From positions 256,001-320,000 of the forward strand of contig CAVQBA010000001.1 in the NCBI GenBank assembly GCA_963710605.1: DNA of 64,000 nt, given 5' to 3'. Positions 33,411 through 52,303 of this stretch are shown piece after piece. A program made the translations under genes and the position numbers. Position 1 is the first letter of the stretch, and each line of letters opens with the position of its first letter. Origin of the DNA: an uncultured cyanobacterium. GTDB lineage: Bacteria; Cyanobacteriota; Cyanobacteriia; Cyanobacteriales; Cyanobacteriaceae. The notes beneath the pieces were generated by a model that saw only the letters and a program-made list of their open reading frames with translations, did no database searches and was not told where the DNA came from.

Positions 33411-33806
33411 TTGAGCCAAACTAATTTAGATTTAGCCATTAAACAATTTAATCAAAGGGAATTTTATGCGTGCCATGATACTTTAGAAGAAATTTGGCTT
33501 GAATCGATCGAGCCTGACAAAACTTTTTATCAAGGTATCTTACAAGTTGCGGTGGGTTGTTATCATTTTGGTAATGGTAATTGGCGTGGGGCAGTAATTC
33601 TTTTAGGAGAAGGGATGCGTAAATTAATCTCTTATGAGCCTGATTATCTAGAGGTTGATGTAACTCAATTGACCGATCAAAGTAATGATTTACTGATTGC
33701 TTTACAAAAAATTGAACCTGAAACTGTTACTCAATTTTATCAGCAATTACTCGATCGACAATTAGAGAATAATCTTGATTTTCCTGTAATTCAAACCATT
33801 TCTTGA
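33411..33806 (+). CDS. DUF309 protein
   Basis: FN..EFYACHDTLEEIW...YQGILQVAV. Confidence 0.85.
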   Translation: MSQTNLDLAIKQFNQREFYACHDTLEEIWLESIEPDKTFYQGILQVAVGCYHFGNGNWRGAVILLGEGMRKLISYEPDYLEVDVTQLTDQSNDLLIALQKIEPETVTQFYQQLLDRQLENNLDFPVIQTIS

Positions 33807-33880
33807 TTTTTATCTTTTCTAACTAAATATCTTGCAAAATTAGTCAAAAATCGTTAGACTAGTTATGAATGTCAAAAAAT

Positions 33881-33954
33881 GGGTGCGTAGCTCAGATGGA
33901 TAGAGCAACTGCCTTCTAAGCAGTCGGTCACAGGTTCGAATCCTGTCGCACCCG
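33881..33954 (+). tRNA. trnR: tRNA-Arg(TCT)
   Basis: GGGTGCG acceptor pairs with CGCACCC; anticodon loop CTTCTAA; GGTTCGAATCC T-loop. Confidence 0.97.
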
Positions 33955-34019
33955 TATTACTCTACTAAAAAATATTCAAATTAGAGACAAGGTATGCCTT
34001 GTATCTACTGATTTTTTGT

Positions 34020-35435
34020 TTATTTGTTTAATCTTGCCGACATTAATGGTAATATTGCCTCGATACCTTCTGTTAAGGCACTTCCTACAATTTCACATCG
34101 ATCGTGGTAAATATCTTCAGTTATAGTAGAAACATCCTCAAACTCTGATAATTGAACTAAAAGTCGATCGATTTCGACGGTAAAAATATTACGTTGATAA
34201 AAATCTGTCATAATCATTTGATCAACATCCGCATAAATAGAAGCAAATTGCACCACTTGAGTTAGTCTAGTTAAAATTCCGCCACCATAACCATAAACAT
34301 CATTTTCAAATTCGGGAATATTTTCTATTGGTGGTAACTTATCCTTGTTTTGTTTCAATACAGCTAAAAAAGCCTGATAAAATATATCTGCCTCCTCAGG
34401 TGTAGTTGTCCAATATCCATCCTCATCATCTGTATTTCGTACATCCAATACTGAGACTAAAGGGCGTAAACTATTTTCTTGTTGAGCTATTTCTAGCCAG
34501 TTTTGATTATCATCAGCTTGAGTTAGGTATTTATTTAAAAATCCATGCCCAAAACCTGCATAGCTATGAGGTTCGATTATAATCGGTTGAGTTGCACTTA
34601 ACCGAGACAAAGCACCTCTAACCGCACCTGTAACTTTAAGACTAAAACAATGATTTTCTAAAATTTTATTTCTAATTTCCCAAGGCGGTAATTGATTATT
34701 TTGATAAATGAAGTCGCCTCGATAAGTTTGAGTATTTAACCAACAATCTACTTGTTTGTTTTGTAAATATTCGATCGTTGTTTCTTCGGTTGTCGGCAGA
34801 GGGCGATTACCATTACAGATAATTAGATTCCATAAAAATGCTGTACCCATCACAGGCGTATATTTTGGTGTCTTTGTTCGCCATAAATAAGCGATTAATT
34901 CTTTTACTCCCACATCCGATTGTCTTATTGCTGTATAAGGATGTGCTTGATAAATCGGTTTGTCTGTGACTATTTTGGGGTTAATAAGCTCTTTAACTAC
35001 ATCAGGAATACTTGTACCTGCATGAACCGCATCGATCGCAATTAAGGGGCTTTTTAGTGAGGGTAAAATAAGTTGTTGAGCTATTTGCTTTGGTTTAACA
35101 AAAGACAGACAAACACCTTCATTGTCATAAATATAAAGACTGTCTTGAATAAGAGTAAGATTGACTTTGCCTTCTTTTTCTAAATATGGTTTAGTGATAA
35201 GTGCGATCGCATCTTGGATTTGCCATGAATCGATCGTTTTTTCTTGAGCAGAATTAGTAATTTTTGTAGTTGGTTGAATACGATCGATATTACTCAAAAT
35301 AAATTCAGTAACTTGATCTATTTTCGTCAAACAATAAACTTTTTCACTTAATTTCCCTCCTGATAAAAGAGTAATTAATTCTTGAGTTGCAGGGGGAATT
35401 ACTGGTTTTTTTTGAATCAAAGAATCAATTAACAT
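34020..35435 (-). CDS. Divergent N-formylglutamate amidohydrolase-like (Zn hydrolase fold) protein with ~125 aa unknown N-terminal domain
   Basis: Ordered motifs AVHAGTSIP, SDVGV, CNGNR, EPHS, RPLVSVLD, NDVYGYGGGILTR, VEIDRLL parallel the HutG/FGase pattern (PHxG, DxxV, DxNR, DxHS, RPD, NxPYxGG, IEIxR). Confidence 0.6.
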   Translation of the reverse strand: MLIDSLIQKKPVIPPATQELITLLSGGKLSEKVYCLTKIDQVTEFILSNIDRIQPTTKITNSAQEKTIDSWQIQDAIALITKPYLEKEGKVNLTLIQDSLYIYDNEGVCLSFVKPKQIAQQLILPSLKSPLIAIDAVHAGTSIPDVVKELINPKIVTDKPIYQAHPYTAIRQSDVGVKELIAYLWRTKTPKYTPVMGTAFLWNLIICNGNRPLPTTEETTIEYLQNKQVDCWLNTQTYRGDFIYQNNQLPPWEIRNKILENHCFSLKVTGAVRGALSRLSATQPIIIEPHSYAGFGHGFLNKYLTQADDNQNWLEIAQQENSLRPLVSVLDVRNTDDEDGYWTTTPEEADIFYQAFLAVLKQNKDKLPPIENIPEFENDVYGYGGGILTRLTQVVQFASIYADVDQMIMTDFYQRNIFTVEIDRLLVQLSEFEDVSTITEDIYHDRCEIVGSALTEGIEAILPLMSARLNK

Positions 35436-35663
35436 TCTGATGGGATTGATAAACTAAATCGTCTTAATGTAAATTATTAAATCATAATCAAAGGCAAAAA
35501 GCAGATAAAAAAGTATCGAATACGGTTATGGCTATAAAAGAAGAAAAAAAATAGCTACTATTATCTAACAAATTCGATCGCTATTTTTTTTTAATGACTC
35601 AAATCTAACTATCTCGTTATATCCCTCTAAATCTCTCTCTCTATACTTTTAAGCATTTTTTGC

Positions 35664-35758
35664 TTGCTGATGGTAACGTTTTTCTCTATAATATTTCTAT
35701 CGGTCGCAAATGCGTGAAGGAATTATTTCTCTATCTAGCTTTGACGATCGATCGGTAG
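35664..35758 (+). promoter_or_regulatory. Second copy of the CRISPR leader/promoter (-35 TTGCTG, 17 bp, -10 TATAAT)
   Basis: Ungapped similarity to 47954-48041: TCTATAATATTTCTATCGGTCGCAAATG vs TCTACAATATTTCTATCGCTCGGAAATG (25/28), shared AATTATT and CTTTGACGATCGA at the same spacing. Confidence 0.85.
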
Positions 35759-35794
35759 CTCTACCTCTATGGTGGAAATCACTTAAATTGAAAC
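35759..35794 (+). CRISPR. Solitary diverged CRISPR repeat CTCTACCTCTATGGTGGAAATCACTTAAATTGAAAC
   Basis: 29/36 identical to the array repeat, same length, stem preserved, 3' AATTGAAAC intact. Confidence 0.9.
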
Positions 35795-35879
35795 GCTCGA
35801 CTCGTTTGACGAAGCCTTCTGTGCGAAGTTTGCTCAATATTATTTTCCGTTCGATCGTCCAAGTGCGATCTAGATAAAT

Positions 35880-36371
35880 ATGAAAACAGATCTTAATAGT
35901 TTGAATCGTCAACCTTTAATAATTGCAGGTATATTACTCGGCTTAGGACAAGCTGGCTTTTTTGATGGAATTGTTTTTCATCAACTACTGCAATGGCATC
36001 ATATGTTTACTAACGTTGAAACTAGTAACACTGTTTTAGGCTTAGAATTAAATACTTTAGGTGATGGTTTATTCCATTTAGTGGACTGGCTATTTACTTT
36101 GTCTGGCTTGATAGTATTGTGGTTAGCTATTAAAAGAAATGACGTAAATCTTTCTACTGCTGTTTTGATTGGTGCTTTTTGTATTGGTGCAGGAATGTTT
36201 AACATCACCGAAGGTATATTGAGTCATCATATTCTTCAAATTCATCATGTCAAACCAGGAGAGCATCAGCTTGCATGGGATTTAAGCTTTATTGGAGCGG
36301 GGATATTATCGGTGATTATTGGCGGGATAATTCTCAACCGCCCGACTAATCTTAATCTGCCAAACAAGTAA
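35880..36371 (+). CDS. DUF2243-like His-rich membrane protein
   Basis: About 4 TM segments; FFDGIVFHQLLQWHHM, DGLFH, EGILSHHILQIHHV. Confidence 0.8.
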   Translation: MKTDLNSLNRQPLIIAGILLGLGQAGFFDGIVFHQLLQWHHMFTNVETSNTVLGLELNTLGDGLFHLVDWLFTLSGLIVLWLAIKRNDVNLSTAVLIGAFCIGAGMFNITEGILSHHILQIHHVKPGEHQLAWDLSFIGAGILSVIIGGIILNRPTNLNLPNK

Positions 36372-36394
36372 CATAAATAGATATTCAAGCCCAA

Positions 36395-36905
36395 TAAATA
36401 GTTGTTACGATCTGCTTTGGTTTGACAAAAGACAAACAAACACCTTCTGTATCGTAAATATATAGTTATTTCAATAAAGAGGTGAGACACTAGTATTTAT
36501 AGCAGCCTTGCAATGAATTGACAAGGCTTAACAGAGTCCGTTTAATAAATTAAACTAAGATTTTTTAGAGTCAAAATTGTCTCATTGTTATTTTAAATGA
36601 CTATATATCGTGTCTTCGATCGGACTAAGATTTAGCTTACCTTCTTTTTCTAAATATGGTCTAGTCATAAGTGCGATCGCATCTTGGATTTGCCACGAAT
36701 CGATCGTTTTTTCTTGAGCAGAATTAGGAATTGTTGTTGTTGGTTGAATACGATCGATATTACTTAAAATAAATTCAGCTACTTGATCTATTTTCGTCAA
36801 ACAATAAACTTTTTCACTTAATTTTCCTCCTGATAAAAGAGTAATTAATTCTTGAGTTGCCGGGGGAATTACTGGTTTTTTTGGAATCAAAGAATCAATT
36901 AACAT
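36395..36905 (-). pseudogene. Diverged 5' copy of the 34020-35435 gene, interrupted by a MITE and truncated
   Basis: About 105/118 aa identical to the intact gene's N-terminus; homology resumes after the insertion (IYDTEGVCLSFVKPKQI at ~36410-36462). Confidence 0.85.
36463..36603. mobile_element. 141-bp MITE-like insertion with imperfect TIRs and TA target duplication
   Basis: Ends TAGTTATTTCAATAAAGAGGTGAGACA / TGTCTCATTGTTATTTTAAATGACTA; removing it plus one TA restores codons T-I-Y-I-Y. Confidence 0.75.
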
Positions 36906-38199
36906 TCTGGTGGGATTGAGGTGAATCGATCAATTATCTCTCTATTTAAAACAGCAAAACTATTTTCTTTCCTAAAAACTTCTTGATTTTCATTAAATAA
37001 ATACTCAATAATATTTTGAATATTTTTAACTAAATTATTAGCATCTTCTTCAGTTAAATCTGATTTTGATACACCTTCAAATTGATGAACTAATCCATTT
37101 CTTAACTGACAATATTCGTCCAAACTTTCTAAATCTTTAAGTACAGATTGTGGACAAGAAAAAGAATTATACCTAATTATTACTAACATTACAGGGCGAG
37201 TAAAATAATCTAGATTGAGATTTTGCTGTTTTACTGTTTGTCTTAATTTACCATCATCATAACCTTGACAAATATCGATGACTTGTGTTTTTAGTCGATT
37301 ATTCCAAGATTGGGTAAGTAAATTAGGAGCAACAAATTTTCTGACTAAATATTTTAAAACAAACTCTTGAAAACCAAAAATTAAAATAATAAATTGTGAA
37401 TATTCTTTAGTTTTTAGTCTTACTAAAATATGATAATAAAGTTCAACTAAAATAGATGTTTGATTTTTTTTTGCTAATTGATTAATTTCTTGTGTTAATC
37501 TTTCTCAAATGATTGCGAATTTTCAATTTGAGCTTGAGCATCTTCAAAATTGGAAGCTAAACGTGAACTTCCATACTCTAATAAAGAACTAATTTGATTG
37601 TCAGTTAAAGAACTAAGTCGTAAGGTTTCGATCGCACCATTGTAGTTATAATTATTGATCTGAGTTTGAATTATATTAAGATCAAATTCTCGTTTAAGGG
37701 TATCAACATTAGCTTGAAAAACCCGATTTTGCCCTTCCTTCATCGCCTTAGGATTCCTGACTTGCCAAATATTACTTTTAGGAAAATAACCCGCCGCTTG
37801 TAAAACGGCAAATGCACTTTTCATAGCTGGTGTTCCTGAAGAACTATTAAACTCTAAAATATCGTTATTATTTTGAATAGTAGGAAGATTTGTATTAATC
37901 TTTTTGATTTCTTCTATTACTAAAGATAAATTGATCGGATCTTCTGATAATCTATTATCAACAGGAAGTAAAAAAAATTGCTCTGAAGTAAAAGGCGAGT
38001 TTTCTAATAATTCTATTAACCATTCTTTAGTCTCTTTTGCTCCTTTTTCAGTATCTATAGTGTGGAGTAAAATTATTTTTTTGATCCTTTTTTTCTGACT
38101 TAATAAATGTCTAATTAAAGTAACGATCGAACCTTCTTCATTGGTATTATGAGAAACAGGATCTTGATTTCCGACAAAGGATAAAATAATACTAGGCAT
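36899..38199 (-). CDS. Csm6-like CARF-HEPN ribonuclease, frameshifted near 37502 (~433 aa when repaired)
   Basis: CARF motifs SFVGNQDP and NSSSGTPAM; adding one A reads through 37190-37495 without stops into the 96-aa ORF carrying HEPN RNGLVH. Confidence 0.8.
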
Positions 38200-38273
38200 A
38201 GTTAGTTAATAGTAGTAGTAGTAGGTTGGATTGAAAAATGAAACCCAACTTTAGAGTTAATAATTGTTAATTC

Positions 38274-40112
38274 TCAATTGTTTGGATTGTTTATCGCTTC
38301 CACTCCAAATAAATGTCTTTTACCCCTTATTCTGGCTAAATCTTGCACAAATCTTGCTCTCATGTGATTAGGATGATTGACCGCAACGCCCCCCATAAAA
38401 ACACAGACTATTTCTTGACATTCAGAATCGTTGATGGTGGGATGAGGAGTATTAACTCTTTTGATACTTACCCACGAGCAATGAGCTTCCCCACTTCCTG
38501 CAAGTCCACCAACGTCTTGTTTTCGCTTATAAGCAGGTTTATAAATCAAATTCATCCCTTCTCCACGGGTATCAACTACGTTATCAAAATCACCCCATGT
38601 GTTATCTTCCATATCGATCGGTTCAACATCTGGATAGGGTACAGCATAAATACTACAAGTTTGAGGGGAAAACACTTCTGCATTTAAACGATTATTGGCT
38701 TGAATATTGACTCTATCTGACCAAATTGTTCTAACTGCATTTAACCAATTGTTGTAGGTTGTTTGCCAGATTTCGGCTTTGTTAGCCGACAAACTAAATT
38801 GTCTTAAATTTATTTTGCCTTGCCTGTCTCTATCCTTTGGTTCTAAGATTAGATGACATCCTCTTGATGCTTCTCGACTACTAGAACGAGTTTCCATCAT
38901 AAAGATATGTAAAGGTCGTCGCCATCCTCTACCGACACCACCGACAGTTACCGCAAATTTGATAATTGGTAAAATAATTTTGTTAAGAATATCATGGGGT
39001 TGTTTGGGGGCAGTAATTTTTAATTGTCCTTGCCATTGATAAAAAGAAGGAGCATGCTCAGATTCTTCACCCCATGTATCACCTTGAGTCATTTCAATCC
39101 TGACACAACCTTTTTGGGCTTGATTTTTGTCACCTGCATCGATACTACCCATTAATTCCCCTAGGGTTTTTTCGGCATTTTCTTGAGTCATTACTCCTAA
39201 CAAAAACCGTAGTACCCACGATCGTAACCAGCCTCGCCAATGAGCAGGGCGTAAGACTATATTATTGGTAGTTACACCGCCACAACCTTGACTATAAAGA
39301 GTGAAATCAAAAACTTCTAATGCGTTATTAGGCTCTTGAGTAATAGTAATTCGACGATCGACCTCAATTGCTCCATAACCTGAAGCTGTACGACTACCAA
39401 CACCGTATAAAGCAAGTGCTTGTTGTAACCATGACCAAACTGTATCTAATTCCTCACTAGTTACTTTACCTGCCATACCTTTAATAGCGACTTTGAAGGG
39501 AATTTTATCTTGTCCATTTCCTAATGTATATGAAGATAAAGGAGTACTTTGTCCATCATGATAAACCTGAAATCCTTGTTGAGGATTGACGATATCTAAG
39601 GTTACTTTTTGGTGAGTGGTAGGATAAGCATCCAAAAATTGAATTTTCCCCGCACTGATTTTGTCATTTTCTTGCTTACCTAATAACTTTTCCATTTGGG
39701 TTTTAATCTCAGGACGTTTGTTTGCCCATGTCCTGACTAAGCCACGGATACTAGAAGCAGGGATATAACCATTGAGAGGTAAAGTTTTAAACCAGTCATT
39801 ATTTTCGCCCACATTTCTTTTGGCTTCAGGGCGAGATATTTTCTCTGGGCATGAGGAATTTTCTTTTTGTGTATTTGTTCTCTTCCATGCTTGCTGTACA
39901 CTTTGTTTCGTTTCTGTCTTTTTTGGCTTCCATGCCCCGTCTGGCTCTGAGGCTGGGATCATCGTTTCTATATCTGGATGAGGATATGAGCCTACTTTTG
40001 CCCTCCATTGAAGGGTAAATTCGCCTTGCTTAAATAAGTTGTCTTGATTACGTTCTTTTTGTTGTTGAGCTAAAAGTTCAATCAGTTTGATGGCTGTATT
40101 TGGTCTGGGCAT
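38274..40112 (-). CDS. Cmr6-Cmr1-like double RAMP fusion
   Basis: PASSIRG, FLDAYP, DIVNP, GVGSRTASGYG (Cmr6-like); WRGWLRSW, GGVGRGWRR (Cmr1-like). Confidence 0.8.
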   Translation of the reverse strand: MPRPNTAIKLIELLAQQQKERNQDNLFKQGEFTLQWRAKVGSYPHPDIETMIPASEPDGAWKPKKTETKQSVQQAWKRTNTQKENSSCPEKISRPEAKRNVGENNDWFKTLPLNGYIPASSIRGLVRTWANKRPEIKTQMEKLLGKQENDKISAGKIQFLDAYPTTHQKVTLDIVNPQQGFQVYHDGQSTPLSSYTLGNGQDKIPFKVAIKGMAGKVTSEELDTVWSWLQQALALYGVGSRTASGYGAIEVDRRITITQEPNNALEVFDFTLYSQGCGGVTTNNIVLRPAHWRGWLRSWVLRFLLGVMTQENAEKTLGELMGSIDAGDKNQAQKGCVRIEMTQGDTWGEESEHAPSFYQWQGQLKITAPKQPHDILNKIILPIIKFAVTVGGVGRGWRRPLHIFMMETRSSSREASRGCHLILEPKDRDRQGKINLRQFSLSANKAEIWQTTYNNWLNAVRTIWSDRVNIQANNRLNAEVFSPQTCSIYAVPYPDVEPIDMEDNTWGDFDNVVDTRGEGMNLIYKPAYKRKQDVGGLAGSGEAHCSWVSIKRVNTPHPTINDSECQEIVCVFMGGVAVNHPNHMRARFVQDLARIRGKRHLFGVEAINNPNN

Positions 40113-40164
40113 GGTGGTTTGTCGTTAGGAGAATAATCGAAATAGTTTTAGTTAATCTAAATTA

Positions 40165-40704
40165 TTAATCTGATTGTTTGTACGCTCTACCCCAAAAGTT
40201 CCAGTAAGAAGATATTGCTAAGGCTTTTCGCCACATTCTCATATATTCGGTGGAATTGTTTTGTGCCATTTGTTGAACTTTTTTCATTAACTCATCAGCT
40301 TTGATGTCTTTGTTGTTATCGATTAGTTGTCCTAAAAGCGATCGCCATACAGGTATTGTTCTTTGTCGGACATCTCCTCCTTGATCATTAGTTTGATTGA
40401 TATAACCCACCGCAGAAAGTAAACCAAATACCCTTAAATGCGTGGATAATCTTAAAATAGCAGTTAATTCTTTTTCTTCCATCAGAGGATTATCGCCTAA
40501 ATAATTTTGAATATGTTCGTAAGCAGTTAAACTCATTTGTTCAGGTTGCACCATGTTGGTTTTAATTGATGATGGAGGTGATACGGTTGCGTTGGTGGAT
40601 GACTTATTTGGTGCTTTTGGTTGGTTTTTTTGATTTGATGAACTTGAATTGTTTTGTTTTTGTTTTTGTTTTTGTTTTTGTGGATGTCTATTGTTTTTAG
40701 CCAT
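40165..40704 (-). CDS. cmr5: Cmr5/Cas11 small subunit with low-complexity N-terminus
   Basis: Position between cmr4 and cmr6; helical domain RLSTHLRVFGLLSAVGY; ATG at 40704 preferred. Confidence 0.65.
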   Translation of the reverse strand: MAKNNRHPQKQKQKQKQNNSSSSNQKNQPKAPNKSSTNATVSPPSSIKTNMVQPEQMSLTAYEHIQNYLGDNPLMEEKELTAILRLSTHLRVFGLLSAVGYINQTNDQGGDVRQRTIPVWRSLLGQLIDNNKDIKADELMKKVQQMAQNNSTEYMRMWRKALAISSYWNFWGRAYKQSD

Positions 40705-40808
40705 TATCTTGTCTTTATTTGAGCTAATGAATACTTTTAAATTTTTAGTAGGGCGATGCACACCCCACCACCATGATTCAAACTATAATCTCTTGAACGA
40801 GTTGTTGA

Positions 40809-41708
40809 TCAAGTAGATTGAGCTGTTGCTTGTGAAACGGATGAACTAGCTAAAGGAGACTTGTTATCCGCAACCCAACTTTGTACCCAACCTCGCCCAA
40901 CACTGGCTTGCCCACCAACTTGAATCAATCCTTCTACTACTTCGATCAATTGATTATGGTCATCCTCAGTGATAGGATTACTTTGATTGAGACTATACCC
41001 CCACGGATAATAAAAAATAGTGTCTCTAGGTATGCAGACATCCGTCCAAAAAACCTCCGCACTTCCTGCTTCCTCTCCTATGTCTTGAATTTTGTTTCTG
41101 ATTTGTGTCCACAAGGAATGCTCCATCAAAATTTGAAAATCAGCATCGGGTAAAACCAAATGACTTTGCTCCCAAGCACTTTTAACTGAATCACCTAAAG
41201 AAGGACACCAATTACTTGCTAAGGAAATAACTGCTTTTTGCTGTGCTGACAAACTAGAGATAGGAGTGACATTAATTTTGGCATCGGCTACCGTATAAGT
41301 ATCACCAGTTGTCCCCACGGCACAGTTAGGCAAAGCAACAGCAGGTAAACCTGCAATCAAAGCATGATCTCGGATTAAACTATGACAACTAACCCAAGTA
41401 AAAACATCGCTATTATTACGAGACATTGTCGGCATCGGTACCCATAATAAACGACCATCTCCAAACCAAACTTGATGTACTCCCATTTGTCCATCACCGT
41501 CGAGTTTTCGCCCAAATAATCGCTCAGCTAGATCAAAATCGATCGATTCTAGTTCATTTCTAAGATTACCTCTTAAAGTAGAACCAGGGATATAAGGAAA
41601 ATTGGTATGGGCTTCTCTCGCAATTTCTAAAATATTACCCAAATCACCTTCTCCACCGCAATGTACAGGAGAAAGACTGTATAAATAACCAACACGAAAA
41701 TCTGACAT
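40809..41708 (-). CDS. cmr4: Type III-B RAMP Cmr4
   Basis: SPVHCGG..D...IAREAHTNFPYIPGSTLRG; QVGGQASVGRG. Confidence 0.92.
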   Translation of the reverse strand: MSDFRVGYLYSLSPVHCGGEGDLGNILEIAREAHTNFPYIPGSTLRGNLRNELESIDFDLAERLFGRKLDGDGQMGVHQVWFGDGRLLWVPMPTMSRNNSDVFTWVSCHSLIRDHALIAGLPAVALPNCAVGTTGDTYTVADAKINVTPISSLSAQQKAVISLASNWCPSLGDSVKSAWEQSHLVLPDADFQILMEHSLWTQIRNKIQDIGEEAGSAEVFWTDVCIPRDTIFYYPWGYSLNQSNPITEDDHNQLIEVVEGLIQVGGQASVGRGWVQSWVADNKSPLASSSVSQATAQST

Positions 41709-41712
41709 AGTT

Positions 41713-42882
<1,170 letters not shown>

Positions 42883-42984
42883 TTAAGTGTATTTATTCCC
42901 CTCATTGATAGGAGGGGTTAGGGGAGGTTGGTTTTAAGTGTATTTATTCCCCTCATTGATAGGAGGGGTTAGGGGAGGTTGGTT
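42883..42984. repeat. Exact 51-bp tandem duplication with CCCCTC...GAGGGG hairpin
   Basis: TTAAGTGTATTTATTCCCCTCATTGATAGGAGGGGTTAGGGGAGGTTGGTT twice. Confidence 0.95.
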
Positions 42985-45900
42985 TTAACTATTAACTATT
43001 TTTATTTCTCGATTACGAATAACAAAAGCGGCTAATCTTAACCAATTACTAGTTTCCTCAGTAAAGTTTTCTGAAGGACTTTTGTTCCACATTGACTCAA
43101 CAAAATCAGCTAGTTTTACTTGAAATTCACTCAGTTTTGTTTTCTCCAAATTAGTTCTTCTTTCACTAAATGCTCTTATCCAAGGTAAAATTGCTTGTTT
43201 AGTGGGAATAGGATAATTTTTTAAATATTCTGATGTTACTTCAAAAATACTACTAGTTAAATCAAGGCTAATTAGTTGTCGCCAAGTGTCGAGAGTCTCA
43301 AATTTAGCGGTAGCTTTAAGGATATTACCGCTACCATAAATAACTCTGACTTGTAAAGCATCTTTTTGATATAATTCGTTATTATCGTTATATTCGTGTT
43401 GTTTGGCTTGCTCTTCGGCTTCCCATAAGTTTTCAAGTGCGATCGCCATTGGTACAGAATGATGAGCTATGGTGATGCCAAAACTAATACTTGCATTACC
43501 ACCCATAGTAAAAAGAGGACGAGCAGAAAGAGATTCTGGTAAGGGTTTGTGATTACCCCATTGCCAATAATCACCTTTATTCACAAACTCGTTTTGAGGA
43601 TCTTTTTTACCTTGAAAACATTGGCGTAAATCCCACAACCAACTATCCCATTCCCACAGATTGGTATAAGCGAGAACATCATCGCCACCACCATAAATTA
43701 GTCTTCCTGCATATCTTTCTTGGGTTAGATAGGGTACAAGTCGATTAGAAAAATCAAGTAAAGCACGGCTTAACGCACTATGAGTAGAGGGGCCCATTCT
43801 TTTAGTGGCGGTTAAAAATTCGCTCATGGATTGACGTAAGTTTTCTGGCATTTGAGCAATTTTAGCTTTTAACTGTTCAGGAATATAGTCGTTATAGGCT
43901 TTGAGTTTATTGCCTCGTAACCATTCCCCCATCCCATCACCATCACCTGCGGCTAAAATGTACCAATCAGTGGGATTATTACCAACTTGATAATGTTTGG
44001 TTATTTCAAGCCGTAGTTTAACTAATTCATTTTTTTTCGCTGTTAATATTTGTTGGCTTGAATTATCAGGAGTAGAAGGATTAAACTCGTCAATTAACCA
44101 ACCTGCATTTAACAAACGAGGATTTAACCATTTTGGTTGATGTTTGGCTATCCACGGAATACCCCAAGGTAAATTAGCGGGTGATTCTTGATTCTGATTT
44201 GCCCAAGGAAATTGATTGACTATACTTTGACAAGCTTGATGATAATAATCGATCGCTTCTTGGTCTTCATTTTCAGCTAAACTTCTTAAGTAACCTGCTA
44301 CACCCGAACTTAAATCTGGATAAAGAATTGGTACTTTAGTATTTTCCAAGTTATCATTAGGATAAAGTTCAGCTAACAAAATTTGGTGTAAAACACGTTT
44401 GAGTATTTCACTAGGATTGAGTTGTTCAATGCCATCAAATAAACCTAAAGTTTCTGTCCAAAATTGACGTGTCTCTCCTTCTGTAACCCATTCTGTTTGA
44501 TTCTGAGCCATTACGGGGTGAGCTACTGAACCAATTCCTGAGATAGTCGATTGAGGTGCAAAACAAGTTGGTATTTTCCAGTTACGAGCATTTTTTACTG
44601 CATTTAAACTATAACGTAACTGATCAAATGTACTTGCCCACCATGAACCAACATTAAGATTAGATTTTTGATTGCTATTTTGTTGTTGACAAAAGACAAA
44701 AACTGCTTCTAAAAATTGTTGTTCTGAATTTAAAAATAATCCAGGTTGAGGATTAGCGTAATTGTTTTGTTGTTGAATCCATTGATTATATTCTGTTGCT
44801 TCTAGATTAGAGACAGTTGCTGATTTTTGAGGTTGAAAAGATACACTTAATTGTTCGATATCAGGATTACCCATCGGGATAGAAACCCAATAACTTTGCC
44901 ATTGTGCTTTTAACCAACTATTCCATACAGGTAAATTAATCTCTTGCCATTGCTTACCTTGATGTCTGTTTTGAATAAAAGTTAAGACTACATCACCTAA
45001 TTTTTGCCATTCTTTTTTAAGGGTATTATCAGCATATTCCATCGCCGCTTTGACTGGATTGTTTTTGATGGTATTTTCATCTTTACCATTATTGGGTAAT
45101 ATCATAACTAAAACATTGGGAAATCCTGCGGTTAAAATTGATTCGGTGGCTGGTTTTTTAATCCATTGAGCAAAATCAGGATATTTTTGTAATAACCAAT
45201 GATCGATTAATGGTTGTTCATACAGACAAGGATACAATAAGGTATCAGCACCATATTTAAAAGCGATCGCCCAGGCTACTTTTGCACTAAGATAATGCAA
45301 TAACCACGAACCCGCCCAAAAATCACGCATCTTCCGACTAGCTTTAATTAATTCTTGTACTGGGCTAAAACTAAAGGTAGTTAGATAAGGGCGAGATTGT
45401 TCAAATTCTTCAGTTTCTGTTTGGGGATATTGGTTTTCATCATTATAATAACCTGCTAATCCACCTGCGATAGCGGAAGTCATCGTCACCTGACTCCAAA
45501 TAGAAGCATCTGGTAATTTAGTTTCTGCGGGTAACAGATGAATATTAGCTTCTTGCCCCGCAATGATTTCGGGATAACACCGCCATAACCACCAATGAAC
45601 TTTTTGGGGATTTTGCCAATCTTTAATTTGATTTAAGGCATTTCTTTGGATATTTTCTAAAAATTGCGGTTGTGTATTGTCGATTAATTTATCATGCCAA
45701 TTATCACAAATAACTTGTTGTGGCTTCCCTGAGAGTAGATGATGGACGGCTATTCCTGCGTCATTATATTTGACTTCACTATATTCATTCGGTAATTTAT
45801 CTATAGTAGTACGATCGCTTGCCGAAGCAATTGATTCAGATAAACCAATTCTTGTTAGCCATTCTTGATTAAAATTATGCGGTTGAGTTTGAGTATTTTG

Positions 45901-46038
45901 AGTAGGAGATACCCAATCAGTCATACAAGCGAGTATTTTCCAAAGTTCAGATGTTTGACCATTACTACTAGATGAATTTTTAAGTAATGGTTGATGAAGC
46001 AATCCCCAAATTTTAGCTTGCCAGTAAGCTTTTGTCAC
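42985..46038 (-). CDS. cas10: Type III-B Cas10/Cmr2
   Basis: FSPVQELIKASRKMRDFWAGSWLL, AGDGDGMG, YGGGDDV palm motif; HD position reads HQ. Confidence 0.95.
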   Translation of the reverse strand: MTKAYWQAKIWGLLHQPLLKNSSSSNGQTSELWKILACMTDWVSPTQNTQTQPHNFNQEWLTRIGLSESIASASDRTTIDKLPNEYSEVKYNDAGIAVHHLLSGKPQQVICDNWHDKLIDNTQPQFLENIQRNALNQIKDWQNPQKVHWWLWRCYPEIIAGQEANIHLLPAETKLPDASIWSQVTMTSAIAGGLAGYYNDENQYPQTETEEFEQSRPYLTTFSFSPVQELIKASRKMRDFWAGSWLLHYLSAKVAWAIAFKYGADTLLYPCLYEQPLIDHWLLQKYPDFAQWIKKPATESILTAGFPNVLVMILPNNGKDENTIKNNPVKAAMEYADNTLKKEWQKLGDVVLTFIQNRHQGKQWQEINLPVWNSWLKAQWQSYWVSIPMGNPDIEQLSVSFQPQKSATVSNLEATEYNQWIQQQNNYANPQPGLFLNSEQQFLEAVFVFCQQQNSNQKSNLNVGSWWASTFDQLRYSLNAVKNARNWKIPTCFAPQSTISGIGSVAHPVMAQNQTEWVTEGETRQFWTETLGLFDGIEQLNPSEILKRVLHQILLAELYPNDNLENTKVPILYPDLSSGVAGYLRSLAENEDQEAIDYYHQACQSIVNQFPWANQNQESPANLPWGIPWIAKHQPKWLNPRLLNAGWLIDEFNPSTPDNSSQQILTAKKNELVKLRLEITKHYQVGNNPTDWYILAAGDGDGMGEWLRGNKLKAYNDYIPEQLKAKIAQMPENLRQSMSEFLTATKRMGPSTHSALSRALLDFSNRLVPYLTQERYAGRLIYGGGDDVLAYTNLWEWDSWLWDLRQCFQGKKDPQNEFVNKGDYWQWGNHKPLPESLSARPLFTMGGNASISFGITIAHHSVPMAIALENLWEAEEQAKQHEYNDNNELYQKDALQVRVIYGSGNILKATAKFETLDTWRQLISLDLTSSIFEVTSEYLKNYPIPTKQAILPWIRAFSERRTNLEKTKLSEFQVKLADFVESMWNKSPSENFTEETSNWLRLAAFVIRNREIKIVNS

Positions 46039-46269
46039 AATTTATTTTGATTGATAATTTCTAATAATTTAATTTAACCAATTATTTCGTTGTCTGTCAC
46101 GAAAAAGAAAATATTATCTTTTTTTTCTTTGGTTGGTTTAAGCATAGATTATATCTAAGTTATTTTACTCTTCTGATTAACTTTATAAATATTATCTTTT
46201 TAAAGAATATCGCAATAATAATTAGCAATAATAACAACATATTTATCTTCCATCACCGAATTACTATAA

Positions 46270-46566
46270 ATGAATATCTCTTCGCAAGGAACATTAATCA
46301 AGAATATTTCGATTGCTTTTTTTAATGGTTTAATCACCTTAATCTTATTACTAATCGCCCCTTTAGGACTTGCTACCGTAATTTTTAATACCCTAGCTAT
46401 TACAATATCTAGTTTTGCAGTAGCAACTTTATTTGACAAAATTACTGAGTGGTTAATTACCTCAGCCCGATTAAAAACTTTAGATAAATCTTTATCTAAT
46501 CATCCAATACCTGATAATTTGTTACCGAATCCTGACAAAAACAAGATTGACAGAATAGATAGATAA
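46270..46566 (+). CDS. csx18: Csx18-like small membrane protein
   Basis: NGLITLILLLIAPLGLA, 2 TM segments, directly upstream of cas1 as in cyanobacterial III-B variant loci. Confidence 0.7.
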   Translation: MNISSQGTLIKNISIAFFNGLITLILLLIAPLGLATVIFNTLAITISSFAVATLFDKITEWLITSARLKTLDKSLSNHPIPDNLLPNPDKNKIDRIDR

Positions 46567-46576
46567 AACAACAATA

Positions 46577-47569
46577 ATGCAAACTTTATACGTTTCTACA
46601 CAAGGGTGTTATTTATGTCTAGAAAAAGAATTAATCGTCATCAAAAAACAAGGTGAAATCTTAAATAAAGCCCAATTACCATTACTCGAACAGATTTTAA
46701 TTTTTGGTCAATCTCATTTAACTACCCAAGCTATTCGGGCTTGTTTGTTTTTTAATATTCCCATTGTTTATCTTTCTCGCATGGGTTATTGTTATGGACG
46801 TACGATCGCAATCGATCGAGGTTATCGTCAGTTAGCTCGTTATCAACAACAAGTTACTTTAGTTGATAAATTAATTGTTGCCCGTCAGATTGTTACGGGA
46901 AAATTAAACAATTGTAAAATAATTTTACAAAGACAACAAAGAAAAAAGTCACATTTAGAATTAAATAAAGCAATTCAAAGTTTAGATCATCTTAAAAAAC
47001 AAGTTGCTAATGCCGAACAAATCGATCGTTTGATGGGTTACGAAGGTGCAGGGGCGGCAATTTATTTTCCTGCTTTCGGAAAATGTATTAGTAACACTGA
47101 TTTTTTATTTTATCATCGCTCTCGTCGCCCTCCTACTAACGAAATTAACGCCCTACTTAGTTTTGGTTATCAAATATTATGGAATCACTTATTTGCTTTG
47201 ATTGAAATACAAGGGTTAGATCCGTATTATGGTTGTTTACACCAAGATTCAACAGGTCATGCAGTTTTAGCTTCTGATTTGATTGAAGAATTTAGGGCAA
47301 GTATTGTTGATTCTCTGGTTTTATATTTAGTTAATAAAAAAATCATCAAAGCCGAAACAGATTTTGTTTTTCGTGATGGTGGTTGTTTTCTCAGTGACTT
47401 AGGTAGAAGAAAATACCTTCGTGCTTTTTTAACTAGGATGGAAGAAACAGTAACTAATGATAAGCAAGAAAAGTTACCTCGCTGGGAATTGTTGATGCAA
47501 CAGGTAAGAAAAATCAAACAATTTTTTTATCATCCCATCAATGGTTATCAACCTTATTTGCTTAAGTAA
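46577..47569 (+). CDS. cas1: CRISPR integrase Cas1
   Basis: LMGYEGAGA..YF, RRPP...NALLSFGY, GCLH, DLIEEFR. Confidence 0.96.
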   Translation: MQTLYVSTQGCYLCLEKELIVIKKQGEILNKAQLPLLEQILIFGQSHLTTQAIRACLFFNIPIVYLSRMGYCYGRTIAIDRGYRQLARYQQQVTLVDKLIVARQIVTGKLNNCKIILQRQQRKKSHLELNKAIQSLDHLKKQVANAEQIDRLMGYEGAGAAIYFPAFGKCISNTDFLFYHRSRRPPTNEINALLSFGYQILWNHLFALIEIQGLDPYYGCLHQDSTGHAVLASDLIEEFRASIVDSLVLYLVNKKIIKAETDFVFRDGGCFLSDLGRRKYLRAFLTRMEETVTNDKQEKLPRWELLMQQVRKIKQFFYHPINGYQPYLLK

Positions 47570-47571
47570 CT

Positions 47572-47856
47572 TTGATTTTGTTTTATTTAATTTGTTACGA
47601 CATACCTGATGATAAAAGGAGGAAAAAAATCGCCGCTCTTCTTGAAGGTTATGGGGAGAGGGTTCAATATAGTGTTTTTGAGTGTAATTTAAAAACCAAA
47701 CAATATCGAGTGTTACAAATCAGACTGCGAAAAATATTCAATCCAGAAAAAGATAATCTCAGATTTTATCCTATTTCTACTCATACTTTTGCTCAAATAG
47801 AAGTTTGGGGAGTCGCTGTTGAGGTTACTTCTCCTGCTGATTCGATTATTATTTGA
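47572..47856 (+). CDS. cas2: CRISPR protein Cas2
   Basis: YLICYDIPDDKRR...YGERVQYSVFEC. Confidence 0.96.
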   Translation: MILFYLICYDIPDDKRRKKIAALLEGYGERVQYSVFECNLKTKQYRVLQIRLRKIFNPEKDNLRFYPISTHTFAQIEVWGVAVEVTSPADSIII

Positions 47857-48044
47857 ATATATTGTGATGACTATCATTGAATAATCTCTTAAACCTACCA
47901 ATATCGTTTTAACCCTCGCTCTCCCTATCAATGGGGTTTTTAGCTATTTTTACTTGCCTATTTTCATCTTTGCTTCTACAATATTTCTATCGCTCGGAAA
48001 TGGCTTCTGCAATTATTGCTAGATATAACTTTGACGATCGAACC
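47857..48044 (+). promoter_or_regulatory. CRISPR leader with putative promoter (-35 TTGCCT 47954, 17 bp, -10 TACAAT 47977)
   Basis: AT-rich stretch between cas2 and first repeat; elements conserved with the copy at 35664-35758. Confidence 0.8.
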
Positions 48045-50683
48045 CTCTGCCTTCGTGGTGGAAACTACTTGAATTGAAACAGTTGAATCTAAAAGTCTTT
48101 ACTTGTTAGACTAGATCTCTGCCTTCGTGGTGGAAACTACTTGAATTGAAACCTTTCAATAATATGTTCGAACTAATTTCTAATAAACTCTGCCTTCGTG
48201 GTGGAAACTACTTGAATTGAAACTTCTCGAACTAGCAATCCATCAGCTCTGCCTTCGTGGTGGAAACTACTTGAATTGAAACAAAAAAAGCAGTCTATGT
48301 GCTTAAACTCTGCCTTCGTGGTGGAAACTACTTGAATTGAAACGTTGAGTATAGATCTACTAAACTATAATTGTATAATCATATCGCCGAGGGGAGAATC
48401 TCTGCCTTCGTGGTGGAAACTACTTGAATTGAAACTTCCTTTCCCTGTAAAAGGAGCAGTCTGCTTCACTGAATGTGCTCTGCCTTCGTGGTGGAAACTA
48501 CTTGAATTGAAACACGTTTAAATACCCAATAATACCAGTGCAGTTAAACGCCTCTGCCTTCGTGGTGGAAACTACTTGAATTGAAACTTTGTTTCACTCA
48601 GTTTTACTCGTAGGTGTCCTTCCTCCTGCTCTGCCTTCGTGGTGGAAACTACTTGAATTGAAACTCAACGGTATAAGTCCATTCTTTAGATATCTGATTT
48701 TCTCTGCCTTCGTGGTGGAAACTACTTGAATTGAAACTTCAGCTAGATTAGTTACTTCAGTAGCATCTGTACTAACTCTGCCTTCGTGGTGGAAACTACT
48801 TGAATTGAAACGCTAAGCCACTAAACTCTTAACATAAAACCAACTTAACTCTCTGCCTTCGTGGTGGAAACTACTTGAATTGAAACTGTTCGCTTATAGA
48901 ATGTCTCTTCCATATATATTGGCTCTGCCTTCGTGGTGGAAACTACTTGAATTGAAACACAACATGACTGCTAGTGGGTGCTCTACTAAATCATGTCTTA
49001 CTCTGCCTTCGTGGTGGAAACTACTTGAATTGAAACATGTCGGGGACAATGCCCAACTAAGAGCTGTTAAACTCTGCCTTCGTGGTGGAAACTACTTGAA
49101 TTGAAACTAAGGCTTCTAAAGATATAGCTATAGATTGGTTTATTTCCCTCTGCCTTCGTGGTGGAAACTACTTGAATTGAAACAACAGTTAATTGTTCTA
49201 CTAAAGACTCTTTAATAGTCTCTGCCTTCGTGGTGGAAACTACTTGAATTGAAACAATCCGAGTTGACCGAACAGGAAATTCACTGCCCACATACTCTGC
49301 CTTCGTGGTGGAAACTACTTGAATTGAAACAGCTTCCCAATTACCATTTCAAAATCTTTTCTGACTCTGCCTTCGTGGTGGAAACTACTTGAATTGAAAC
49401 AAAAGAATTTTATCCTCTCCTAAATTAGAGGTCAATTTCTCTGCCTTCGTGGTGGAAACTACTTGAATTGAAACGAGAATGCAATTGTTGTCAAGAGCAT
49501 CCCGACAATGCTCTGCCTTCGTGGTGGAAACTACTTGAATTGAAACCAAAGAAGTATTTTACATACAATCTAGAGACTTCTCTCTGCCTTCGTGGTGGAA
49601 ACTACTTGAATTGAAACCTTAGGCATTTCTAAATGTTGGATGCCTATAGCTAAAACTCTGCCTTCGTGGTGGAAACTACTTGAATTGAAACATAAAAGTA
49701 TTTTCTTTAAATGTGCATTCATTAAATGCTCTGCCTTCGTGGTGGAAACTACTTGAATTGAAACTGGTATAGCTTTGGGGTTGACGGCGGTAGCTTTATC
49801 CTCTGCCTTCGTGGTGGAAACTACTTGAATTGAAACTTATTTTGGCGAGAGAATTCCTCCTCAATTAGCTTGAACCTCTGCCTTCGTGGTGGAAACTACT
49901 TGAATTGAAACCTATTTGGTCTGTATTCATGTTCGTTGTACTAACGATGACCGTCTCTGCCTTCGTGGTGGAAACTACTTGAATTGAAACCGCACTGTAA
50001 GGTATAGGACCTGTTTTAGAATTTTGCTCTGCCTTCGTGGTGGAAACTACTTGAATTGAAACGTGACAATCTCTGGATTAAAGGCATAAATCCCTCCTAC
50101 TCTGCCTTCGTGGTGGAAACTACTTGAATTGAAACATGGCAAATCTGATTGCTTTGTGTCGTACATCTTTCTCTGCCTTCGTGGTGGAAACTACTTGAAT
50201 TGAAACCTAGTGCTAGTGTCAGTAATATTGCGATAAGACCTCTGCCTTCGTGGTGGAAACTACTTGAATTGAAACCTAAATAACTTATCGGAAGTCGTGC
50301 CGTAAATAATTCTCTGCCTTCGTGGTGGAAACTACTTGAATTGAAACATTGTTTTGTAGTCGTTTGAAAAAAGTTCGTTAATCTCTGCCTTCGTGGTGGA
50401 AACTACTTGAATTGAAACTAGTTTGTTTACCTGATTCTTCAGAGCTTTTTACTCTGCCTTCGTGGTGGAAACTACTTGAATTGAAACTCATTTGCTTCGG
50501 TCGCACGCTTCCTTAAATCATCTCTGCCTTCGTGGTGGAAACTACTTGAATTGAAACCAACTACAAGAGGTAGTCTCTGCCTTCGTGGTGGAAACTACTT
50601 GAATTGAAACGTCAAAACAATTACTTTTCCCCCGTACATTTTAGTAGCTCTGCCTTCGTGGTGGAAACTACTTGAATTGAAAC
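48045..50683 (+). CRISPR. CRISPR array: 37 copies of the 36-nt repeat CTCTGCCTTCGTGGTGGAAACTACTTGAATTGAAAC, 36 spacers (mostly 33-43 nt)
   Basis: Counted by hand; orientation from leader position and 3' ATTGAAAC. Confidence 0.98.
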
Positions 50684-50838
50684 GTTTGGATATTGAATGA
50701 ACCCAACGGGGGTTCAATGCTGAGCCTCTACTGGCTTTCACCTTAGCTGTACTAACTACTTTACCGCTACTAAAAGTTGAGATTGAGGGTATTGAGTATT
50801 TTCGATCGTATTCAAGCAAAAACCAGCGAATATAGCAA

Positions 50839-52077
50839 TCAATCGATCGATATATCATAATGCCCACAAGAGTTTTTAATTTCTTGTATATGTTCATTTC
50901 TTAAAGACAAAGGATAGATAACCTCAACACTACCGCCGTATCTTTGTAACCAAAAACGAAATTCTTTTAACGATCGTGAAGGCAAGTTAATAGAATAATC
51001 AAGATAAATTAGCTTACCATATTCATTTTTGATTTGTTTGATTGTTTGTTTGGGATGTCTTAATTCACCTTCTAGAATAAAATCGCATACAGGAGGATAA
51101 AATCTAACTTTAATTTTTTCTAACTTTAATTTTTTGTCTAACTCTTGTTTTTGAGCTTCTAAGTTACCTAAATTTAATCCCCAACCGTTACTTAATAATT
51201 TATTAGCTTTTTTAAGACTTTCTTGTTGAGCTTTTGTGTCTCTACCAACGGCAGAAATGACTCGATAATAATTAGCAAAACGACTAATTCTACCGATAAT
51301 CAGTTGGTTGTTTTGGCTATTTTCGTAAAGTAAATACCAAGAAATATTATAGTAAATTAATTGTAGGGGTATGACTTGCTCTAAACCAATTTTTGGCTTT
51401 TTTGGTTGTTGGTTATAAAGATCAGATTTTCTTGATATTTGAATAGTTTGACCAAGTGCGATCGCTTCTTCTAATTGAGGAATATAATGAAATAAAGTCT
51501 GACGATTCTGACTCTTATTCATCATCTGTAGAGGGTCAGTATATTCGATCGCTTGATTAAGATTACGACGAATAGGGTAGCTAAAATCACTCTGAGATTC
51601 AAACTCCAAACCACGAATCCGTTGAGTCAAAATGGTATAACATTCCCTAGCAAAAGTATCACCTTGATATATTGCCATGGATTCTAGTGCATCAAAAGCT
51701 ATTTTTAATTGTTGCTTATCCATCACACCTGTACCCAGATAATAACCCCAACGATACATTCTCGGTTCTAGAATACCAAAACCTTTGAGTATTTCTAAAT
51801 CTTTTCTTAATGTAGCAGTGGCAGGAAGAGGAAAATCAGCAACTAATTCATTCTCACCAGTTAAAAAATTATTATGTTGGCTTGATATTGATTTAGCTAT
51901 CACCACTATTCGCTGTCGTAACAAATCTAAGGCATTATGATGAATTTGGTTTTTTTGATTTTCTGTGTTTTCAAGGCAACCAATACCCGGATAATTAACC
52001 ATTGTCGTAATCAGTAACATCAATCTTTGAAATGATTTCAAATCACTATAACAATGTATCTGAGGTTTTTTAGCCAT
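50839..52077 (-). CDS. WYL domain transcriptional regulator-like protein
   Basis: TLRKDL HTH-like segment, PLQLIYYNISWYLL, WCX-like FWLQRYGGSVEVIYPLSLR. Confidence 0.85.
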   Translation of the reverse strand: MAKKPQIHCYSDLKSFQRLMLLITTMVNYPGIGCLENTENQKNQIHHNALDLLRQRIVVIAKSISSQHNNFLTGENELVADFPLPATATLRKDLEILKGFGILEPRMYRWGYYLGTGVMDKQQLKIAFDALESMAIYQGDTFARECYTILTQRIRGLEFESQSDFSYPIRRNLNQAIEYTDPLQMMNKSQNRQTLFHYIPQLEEAIALGQTIQISRKSDLYNQQPKKPKIGLEQVIPLQLIYYNISWYLLYENSQNNQLIIGRISRFANYYRVISAVGRDTKAQQESLKKANKLLSNGWGLNLGNLEAQKQELDKKLKLEKIKVRFYPPVCDFILEGELRHPKQTIKQIKNEYGKLIYLDYSINLPSRSLKEFRFWLQRYGGSVEVIYPLSLRNEHIQEIKNSCGHYDISID

Positions 52078-52303
52078 GATTGATTATTACCGAAATACTA
52101 TTTATACAACTAAATTAGCTAATTAAGACAGCTAAATCAACTTCAGTATCCCCCCTTAGTCCCCCCTTAGAAAAGGGGATTACCTAAGATGCCGAAGGCA
52201 GAGAGAGGGGTAAACGAGGGGTTAGGGGTGGTTAAACGTCTTAAGCCGCTGATTCGATCGCTATAAAACTGGTAATCGCTATATTTATCCTAAAATACAA
52301 AAT

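Follow-up and report, generated by a model that had tools for sequence, protein, structure and literature searches.

Why should a sequence resembling a CRISPR leader, followed by a single repeat, stand in front of a membrane-protein gene at the edge of a type III CRISPR-Cas locus in a cyanobacterial chromosome? The window analysed here is the whole 64,000-nucleotide stretch of contig CAVQBA010000001.1 (positions 256,001 to 320,000) from an uncultured cyanobacterium. A preliminary description had suggested that the solitary unit could supply a fixed guide or decoy RNA for the Cmr complex or place the downstream mRNA under the crRNA-processing nuclease, and had named a collapsed second array as the alternative. 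We read the unit most readily as the stub of a second III-Bv array, left at a rearrangement junction, and consider it about evenly balanced whether this stub now lends its promoter to the DUF2243 gene copy behind it. The features of the region are collected in Table 1.

Table 1. Position and strand of the features around the solitary unit and the working array (coordinates of the window).
Feature	Position	Strand	Remarks
Copy A of direct duplication: 5' end of 471-aa ORF (34020-35435)	35066..35449	-	plus 14 nt matching csm6 3' end
Solo leader, full-length paralogue of array leader	35559..35758	+	alignment with array leader and relatives' leaders
Solitary repeat	35759..35794	+	29/36 to array repeat, stem-loop kept
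16-nt unique stub from repeat to DUF2243 duplication, possibly rest of first spacer	35795..35810	+	
566-bp segment, 94.7% identical to contig C4:1062217-1062781	35811..36376	+	69 nt of 5' UTR and DUF2243 gene
Copy A' of duplication, truncated 105-aa ORF abutting csm6	36396..36919	-	82-93% identity, MITE-like repeat inside
csm6 (CARF + HEPN)	36899..38199	-	one frameshift near 37477-37504
cmr6 (612 aa), cmr5, cmr4, cmr3, cas10/cmr2: III-Bv effector operon	38274..46038	-	
csx18, cas1, cas2	46270..47856	+	
Leader of functional array	47847..48044	+	TTGCCT / TACAAT
CRISPR array, 37 identical 36-nt repeats, 36 spacers	48045..50683	+	
CARF/WYL-type regulator gene adjoining array trailer	50839..52077	-	

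The system in the window is a subtype III-Bv system resembling CRISPR3 of Synechocystis, with no cas6 in the locus. Its gene order, array-cas2-cas1-csx18 divergent from cas10-cmr3-cmr4-cmr5-large cmr6, is that of CRISPR3 on Synechocystis pSYSA, its Cmr2 is 46% identical to the CRISPR3 protein over the full length, and its repeat agrees with the pSYSA repeat at 25/36 positions. As in other repeats of subtype III-Bv, the 36 nt form a stem-loop at nt 2-18 and leave the 3' half single-stranded. Pfam models of Cas6 matched nothing within the locus, and the sole genomic match (PF10040) lies at C1:176542-176871, about 80 kb before the window start. According to the accessible parts of two reports, Synechocystis sp. 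PCC 6803 CRISPR3 shares the gene order, the lack of cas6, the 36-nt repeat length, the 5' stem-loop and the single-stranded A/U-rich 3' half (PMC12464536, PMC8682795); the likeness concerns the parent system and not the solitary unit. The genome carries at least one further CRISPR-Cas system, and a second, distant Cas10 (37% identity) is encoded outside the window at C5:200491-203187. None of the 36 array spacers matched the genome outside the array. Most of these spacers measure 33-43 nt, the exceptions being 48224-48246 (23 nt), 48283-48307 (25 nt), 48344-48399 (56 nt) and 50558-50574 (17 nt). The gap between cmr3 and cas10 holds a perfect 51-bp tandem duplication (42883-42988, 2.1 copies). 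The csm6 gene aligned to Csm6 of C. aponinum in two reading frames, placing the frameshift as listed in Table 1; this marks either a pseudogene or a sequencing error.

We searched all seven contigs of the genome (3.93 Mb) for the array repeat on both strands, allowing up to 10 substitutions. The 37 perfect copies in the array and the solitary copy were the only ones found. The solitary copy differs from the array repeat by G5A, T9C, C10T, G11A, C21T, T22C and G27A. RNAfold gave both sequences the same 6-bp stem and 5-nt loop, with energies of -6.9 kcal/mol for the array repeat and -7.9 kcal/mol for the solitary one, which is slightly more stable because G5A swaps a G.U pair for A-U. This pair, position 5/15, co-varies among relatives as G.U, C-G or A-U. 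Direct comparison and folding thus bore out the match at 29/36 positions reported initially, as well as the placing of the changes: one in the stem, three in the loop, the other three in the unpaired 3' part. The accompanying view that these changes are non-random did not prove statistically secure. Three of the seven (positions 9, 22 and 27) are at sites invariant in the five functional repeats compared, namely those of the window array, three relatives and pSYSA. The earlier remark that no second repeat follows held up, as ungapped matching found none, even degenerate, in the 206 nt downstream, where no match exceeded 18/36 (background: mean 16.8, 95th percentile 19). Beyond the genome, a strict repeat pattern had no match in the genome-contig collection and the repeat pattern none in the metagenome-contig or viral-contig collections; a family-level pattern found only six stretches in the collection, from two genomes.

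The DNA in front of the solitary repeat is homologous to the leader of the working array, lies in the same orientation and directly abuts the repeat homologue. Identity between the two leaders was about 68-70% over the full length (70% over 205 bp by BLAST, E 1.5e-17; 149/218 positions in a multiple alignment), and the local alignment paired 35559-35794 with 47847-48080, beginning at the cas2 stop codon. The leader-like stretch had been put at about 95 bp; the homology stands, and the length was too short, as the full leader aligns. Both window leaders can be aligned with those of the most closely homologous systems, found in three relatives (Cyanobacterium aponinum PCC 10605, on a plasmid; Geminocystis sp. 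CENA526; an uncultured Cyanobacterium MAG), and the promoter has the same position in all of them. The window leaders resemble each other most, each agreeing with the relatives' leaders at only 112-126 of 217-219 positions. All promoter elements noted at the outset were found again in the solo leader: a -35 hexamer TTGCTG (35664-35669), a 17-bp spacer, a -10 hexamer TATAAT (35687-35692) and CTTTGACGATCGA. The -10 is perfect and the -35 hexamer fits the consensus at only 3/6 positions; a promoter scan did not list the site. With outgroups as reference, lineage-specific changes numbered 28 in the solo leader-repeat and 17 in its working counterpart (p = 0.135), indicating that the solo copy has not decayed markedly faster. 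An apparent long-range hairpin joining the end of the leader to the DUF2243 UTR was rejected as chance, since CGATCG is 25-fold over-represented in this genome. The motif has 8449 genomic copies, twelve of them in 35000-37000, and gives rise to such hairpins by chance.

Sequencing reads and related genomes were also compared. A search among RNA runs for 35450-36400 gave no match. In DNA run X1, which may be the source sample, an unbranched 160-nt contig spans 35688-35847, covering leader, single repeat and downstream sequence, with no difference from the assembly. Metagenome run X2 contains a near-identical version of the stretch, shorter by 2 nt at 35751 and by 1 nt each at 35757 and 35795, together with a paralogue of DUF2243 resembling that on contig C4; both were deduced from indel and depth tables, and the presence of a single repeat in the variant from depth bins. 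The X2 indels (-2 and -1 nt) indicate that the length of the leader-repeat junction varies between close relatives. Across 40 relatives there was no meaningful DNA match to the unit and one 22-nt CT-rich match. A genome of the same genus (67% complete) had no orthologous locus and no III-Bv system, only a 30%-identical Cmr6.

These data bear on two readings in which the unit would be, or would stand for, a normal array. The first holds that a multi-spacer array was collapsed to one repeat during assembly. Arrays can indeed be collapsed in assemblies, but the solitary repeat differs from the array repeat at seven positions, the main array was assembled with all 37 repeats, and the unbranched X1 contig across the single repeat argues against a collapse, though run X1 may be the source sample; we find an assembly artefact scarcely credible. 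The second holds that the unit is an empty but competent array, a leader and one repeat awaiting spacers. In type I-E adaptation a leader and one repeat suffice, and here both are of full length. The four extra nucleotides that had been described at the leader-repeat junction are however present in the alignment, and the last bases of the solo leader differ from those of four functional leaders of relatives and of the window's own leader. The seven changes in the solitary repeat also contrast with 37 identical array repeats, and the X2 variant, going by its depth bins, likewise has a single repeat. We regard an empty competent array as highly improbable.

The sequence behind the repeat records a rearrangement. 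The membrane-protein gene whose ATG had been placed 85 nt past the repeat is confirmed at 35880-36371: it encodes 163 aa with four hydrophobic segments, its ORF is intact, and it matches DUF2243 (PF10002, Pfam E 4e-49, 166.8 bits against a cut-off of 25). Homology with the C4 paralogue sets in at 35811, 16 nt past the solitary repeat and 69 nt short of the ATG. At the C4 locus the TATAAT boxes are situated upstream of this breakpoint, so the native promoter region was not copied along with DUF2243; a promoter inside the 69 nt shared with the C4 copy is possible. No terminator-like site was found between the solitary repeat and the ATG. The whole piece of 35450-36395, comprising solo leader, repeat and DUF2243, is flanked by a direct duplication of roughly 380 bp. 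In the full-length copy of the 471-aa ORF the start codon is preceded by 14 nt from the 3' end of csm6, indicating that this ORF once lay directly after csm6. A MITE-like element of about 100 bp (at about 36505-36605) is inserted in the truncated ORF copy; well over 100 copies of it, at 75-94% identity, are spread over all contigs of the genome.

Pairwise comparison gave dN/dS 0.18 and dS 0.13 for the two DUF2243 genes, and dN/dS 0.22 and dS 0.20 for the ORF pair of which one member is truncated; with so similar a value for a truncated ORF, the divergence may predate arrival at this site and these numbers say little about present constraint. They suggest that the DUF2243 and ORF copies evolved apart in related strains, as working genes, and were only later brought together at this site. 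DUF2243 was absent from the other 19 genomes of the family searched, and a scan of metagenome contigs for its 5' UTR found nothing. Rfam returned one chance miRNA match for the two DUF2243 loci. For the 471-aa ORF, the protein atlas and PADLOC gave no result, and its homologues in two relatives sit in unrelated contexts.

A remnant of a second array is thus the best-supported part of the earlier alternative, and its collapse is the part that failed, since the break lies 16 nt into the first spacer and does not join repeat to repeat. On the stub reading introduced above, a segmental rearrangement would have cut the second array inside its first spacer, 16 nt after the repeat, and would thereby have placed a promoter-less DUF2243 copy behind the leader-repeat stub. 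From the promoter elements and the lack of a terminator-like site we infer that the TTGCTG-17-TATAAT promoter of the leader, with a start near 35699, most likely now drives an mRNA through the lone repeat into DUF2243. The host RNase E would clip this mRNA inside the repeat as a by-product, and the lone repeat would not act as a guide.

What is known of CRISPR3 maturation makes such clipping conceivable. The available text of the Synechocystis sp. PCC 6803 reports attributes CRISPR3 maturation to RNase E and RNase J (PMC12464536, PMC8682795). RNase E is described there as recognising the stem-loop at nt 2-18 of the repeat, the remainder of which is single-stranded, and as cutting the A/U-rich part to leave handles of 13 and 14 nt (PMC12464536); the A-U clamp at the cut consists of A at -4/-3 and U at +2 (PMC8682795). 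As the window locus lacks cas6, processing by RNase E with 13/14-nt handles is to be expected here too, and by inference the handle would take up the final 13-14 nt of the repeat. An 8-9-nt handle, the premise on which the terminal handle had been called intact, is then probably wrong for subtype III-Bv. The last 9 nt of the solitary repeat are indeed unchanged, but the expected 13/14-nt handle contains G27A, and C21T/T22C lie just before the expected cut. The -4 A and the +2 U of the clamp are kept. With the 5' stem-loop and the A/U context behind it preserved, clipping of the lone repeat by RNase E is probable. Control of the downstream mRNA by the crRNA-processing nuclease is accordingly a plausible idea, given that the DUF2243 copy lacks its native promoter region, that no terminator-like site intervenes and that stem-loop and A/U context remain.

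If such a transcript were cut in the repeat and loaded into Cmr, it could serve as a fixed guide or as a competitor of crRNAs. In the genome, the sequence after the solitary repeat matched only the sense strand of the C4 paralogue, other matches being of at most 15 nt (E at least 0.22). Within 33800-52200, on either strand, the longest exact match to the 46 nt after the repeat was 10 nt, a length reached by 118 of 200 shuffles. BLAST of the solitary unit against plasmids and phages and a scan of viral contigs returned no match. The complementarity check proposed for this sequence thus turned up no target above chance in genome, phages or plasmids, and the guide or decoy role suggested for the unit is unsupported, with neither a second repeat, nor a complementary target, nor a viral copy. 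Points that speak for a regulatory or decoy crRNA-like RNA are the retained stem-loop and last 9 nt of the repeat, its own promoter, and the conservation of degenerate repeats in other III-Bv loci (3' half 17/20 against 49% for the UTR; see below). Set against these, the expected 13-nt handle is altered by G27A, no second repeat follows, no target above chance was seen in the locus, genome, phages, plasmids or viral contigs, and a type III example was not found in those parts of the literature that the search covered. We judge this role very unlikely.

The unit was also compared with known repeat-derived RNAs. CreA/CreR of type I systems, as portrayed in the accessible parts of PMC9458426 and of Shmakov et al. 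2023, resemble the window unit in being degenerate repeats derived from the resident array inside a CRISPR-cas locus. As a rule their spacer is bracketed by two repeat-like sequences and pairs in part with a promoter, and they work with a DNA-binding Cascade. The window unit, in contrast, has a single repeat and no complementarity above chance, and the effector of its locus is an RNA-targeting III-B complex. Neither the second, often degenerate repeat a spacer's length downstream nor the spacer complementary to the promoter of a cas or cargo gene that typify CreA/CreR was found. RNA anti-CRISPRs (Racrs) are likewise solitary repeat mimics, encoded in viral genomes according to the portion of PMC10651486 available, whereas the window repeat is chromosomal, lies inside a host cas locus and has no copy in the phage and viral collections searched.

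The same origin without any present function is the main rival reading: the unit would be an inert relic and the DUF2243 copy either silent or expressed from another promoter. The surroundings are scarred by the duplication, the MITE and the frameshifted csm6, three of the seven repeat changes are at family-invariant positions, the leader-repeat junction is not equally long in the window and in the X2 variant, and the intact DUF2243 paralogue elsewhere makes the window copy dispensable. In a systematic survey, repeat-like sequences were over-represented at the flanks of type III loci, and the accessible text regards them as degraded and non-functional (Shmakov et al. 2023, bioRxiv 10.1101/2023.03.03.530964). 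The window unit is like these standalone repeats, as there described, in lying outside an array at the flank of a type III cas operon and in having no detectable target. The standalone repeats also lack a conserved position in relatives; none of the relatives compared here had a locus orthologous to that of the window unit. It differs from the standalone repeats and mini-arrays of that account in having a complete leader with promoter and one repeat only, and in the intact gene without its own promoter region 85 nt downstream. An intact ORF, a perfect -10, the lack of a terminator and a leader decay that is not significantly faster speak against inertness, and we hold a relic without function to be rather unlikely. 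Several observations count against promoter donation by the stub: the weak -35 (3/6) and the missing promoter-scan entry, the changes at positions 9, 22 and 27, which are consistent with drift, and the verdict of Shmakov et al. on type III standalone repeats, as far as their accessible text conveys it.

Solitary repeats were then sought in other III-Bv-type loci. We compared 34 loci (pSYSA included) over 14-39 kb around cas10; 27 had a recognisable array, and the other seven, in which no repeat could be defined, were dropped. Repeat-like sequences with at most 10 mismatches lay outside the arrays in nine of these 27 other loci, two of them near-identical, and no solitary repeat was found in the 31 kb of pSYSA examined. 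The frequency fits the statement of Shmakov et al., in so far as their text was available; not all of these repeats look dead. Four genomes of one genus share an arrangement behind the array trailer: first a hydrophobic ORF of 51 aa, next a degenerate repeat and, about 107 nt beyond it, a membrane ORF of 91 aa. In the repeat before the 91-aa ORF, 17/20 positions of the 3' half are invariant across three species, compared with 49% in the UTR behind it and 73-77% in coding parts, and this repeat does not follow the repeat variant of the host array. The 91-aa ORF occurred in four of 401 genomes searched, all of that genus. The 51-aa and 91-aa ORFs are each preceded by a degenerate or truncated repeat (L074:5900-7400 (-), L070:4080-5650 (-), L081:12790-14900 (+)).

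A co-directional ORF of at least 50 aa starts within 110 nt at nine of 14 hand-grouped solitary-repeat sites, the figure for random non-coding positions being 36% (one-sided p = 0.03); leaving out the window gives 8/13 (p = 0.056), and the association of solitary repeats with ORF starts is thus weak. Only four of the nine downstream ORFs are membrane-like; the ORFs were called mechanically, except for a cold-shock gene (identified by Pfam) and the conserved pair. The cold-shock gene belongs to an elaborate arrangement beside the WYL regulator gene of another III-Bv locus (L066:13791-14973). There, a strong promoter, TTGACA-17-TACAAT, ends 4 nt before a degenerate repeat, behind which lie a 151-aa ORF and a further degenerate repeat. 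After a gap as long as a spacer comes an exact copy of the repeat's 3' half, which stands 10 nt before the ATG of the 70-aa cold-shock gene; another degenerate repeat comes 20 nt further on.

These cases allow a broader reading, in which III-Bv repeats matured by RNase E have repeatedly been co-opted as 5'-UTR modules of non-cas genes, with leader-repeat-DUF2243 as an example. Through the repeat the mRNA would be marked out for an RNase E cut, perhaps with capture of the handle-bearing 5' end by Cmr, and the genes behind such repeats would often encode small membrane proteins. We think this quite unlikely and keep it open on account of the repeats outside arrays in nine of 27 other loci, the conserved repeat before the 91-aa ORF and the framing of the cold-shock gene. 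Type III repeats as 5'-UTR elements of genes were not found in the literature searched; the supplementary tables of type III mini-arrays of Shmakov et al. may contain cases. Were co-option true, expression of such genes would be tied to the state of the CRISPR system, which would give type III systems their own counterpart of the CRISPR-regulated toxin or cargo modules. If the window repeat is processed on an mRNA, the unit would provide a simple natural test case for whether RNase E and Cmr act on transcripts that bear a repeat without being crRNAs; the cas6-less III-Bv systems of cyanobacteria raise this question.

Read as a relic, the unit records a shuffling of III-Bv modules (effector operon, adaptation genes and leader-array) that leaves leader-repeat stumps behind, and the stump shows how a gene landing behind it might be given a promoter. 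Extra leader-array copies are common in this leader family: Geminocystis sp. CENA526 has two large arrays and, on another contig, a third leader with a 2-spacer array. This third leader (contig 44, L037, 2003-2110 (-)) is 88% identical to the main leader and lies far from cas genes; it is followed by two intact repeats and one degenerate repeat, of a variant found in the array of another species. On the C. aponinum PCC 10605 plasmid, about 106 nt after cas2 (L028:13887-14000) resemble the upstream half of the leader at 58-60% and carry no repeat, the array with its full leader being placed after csm6 instead.
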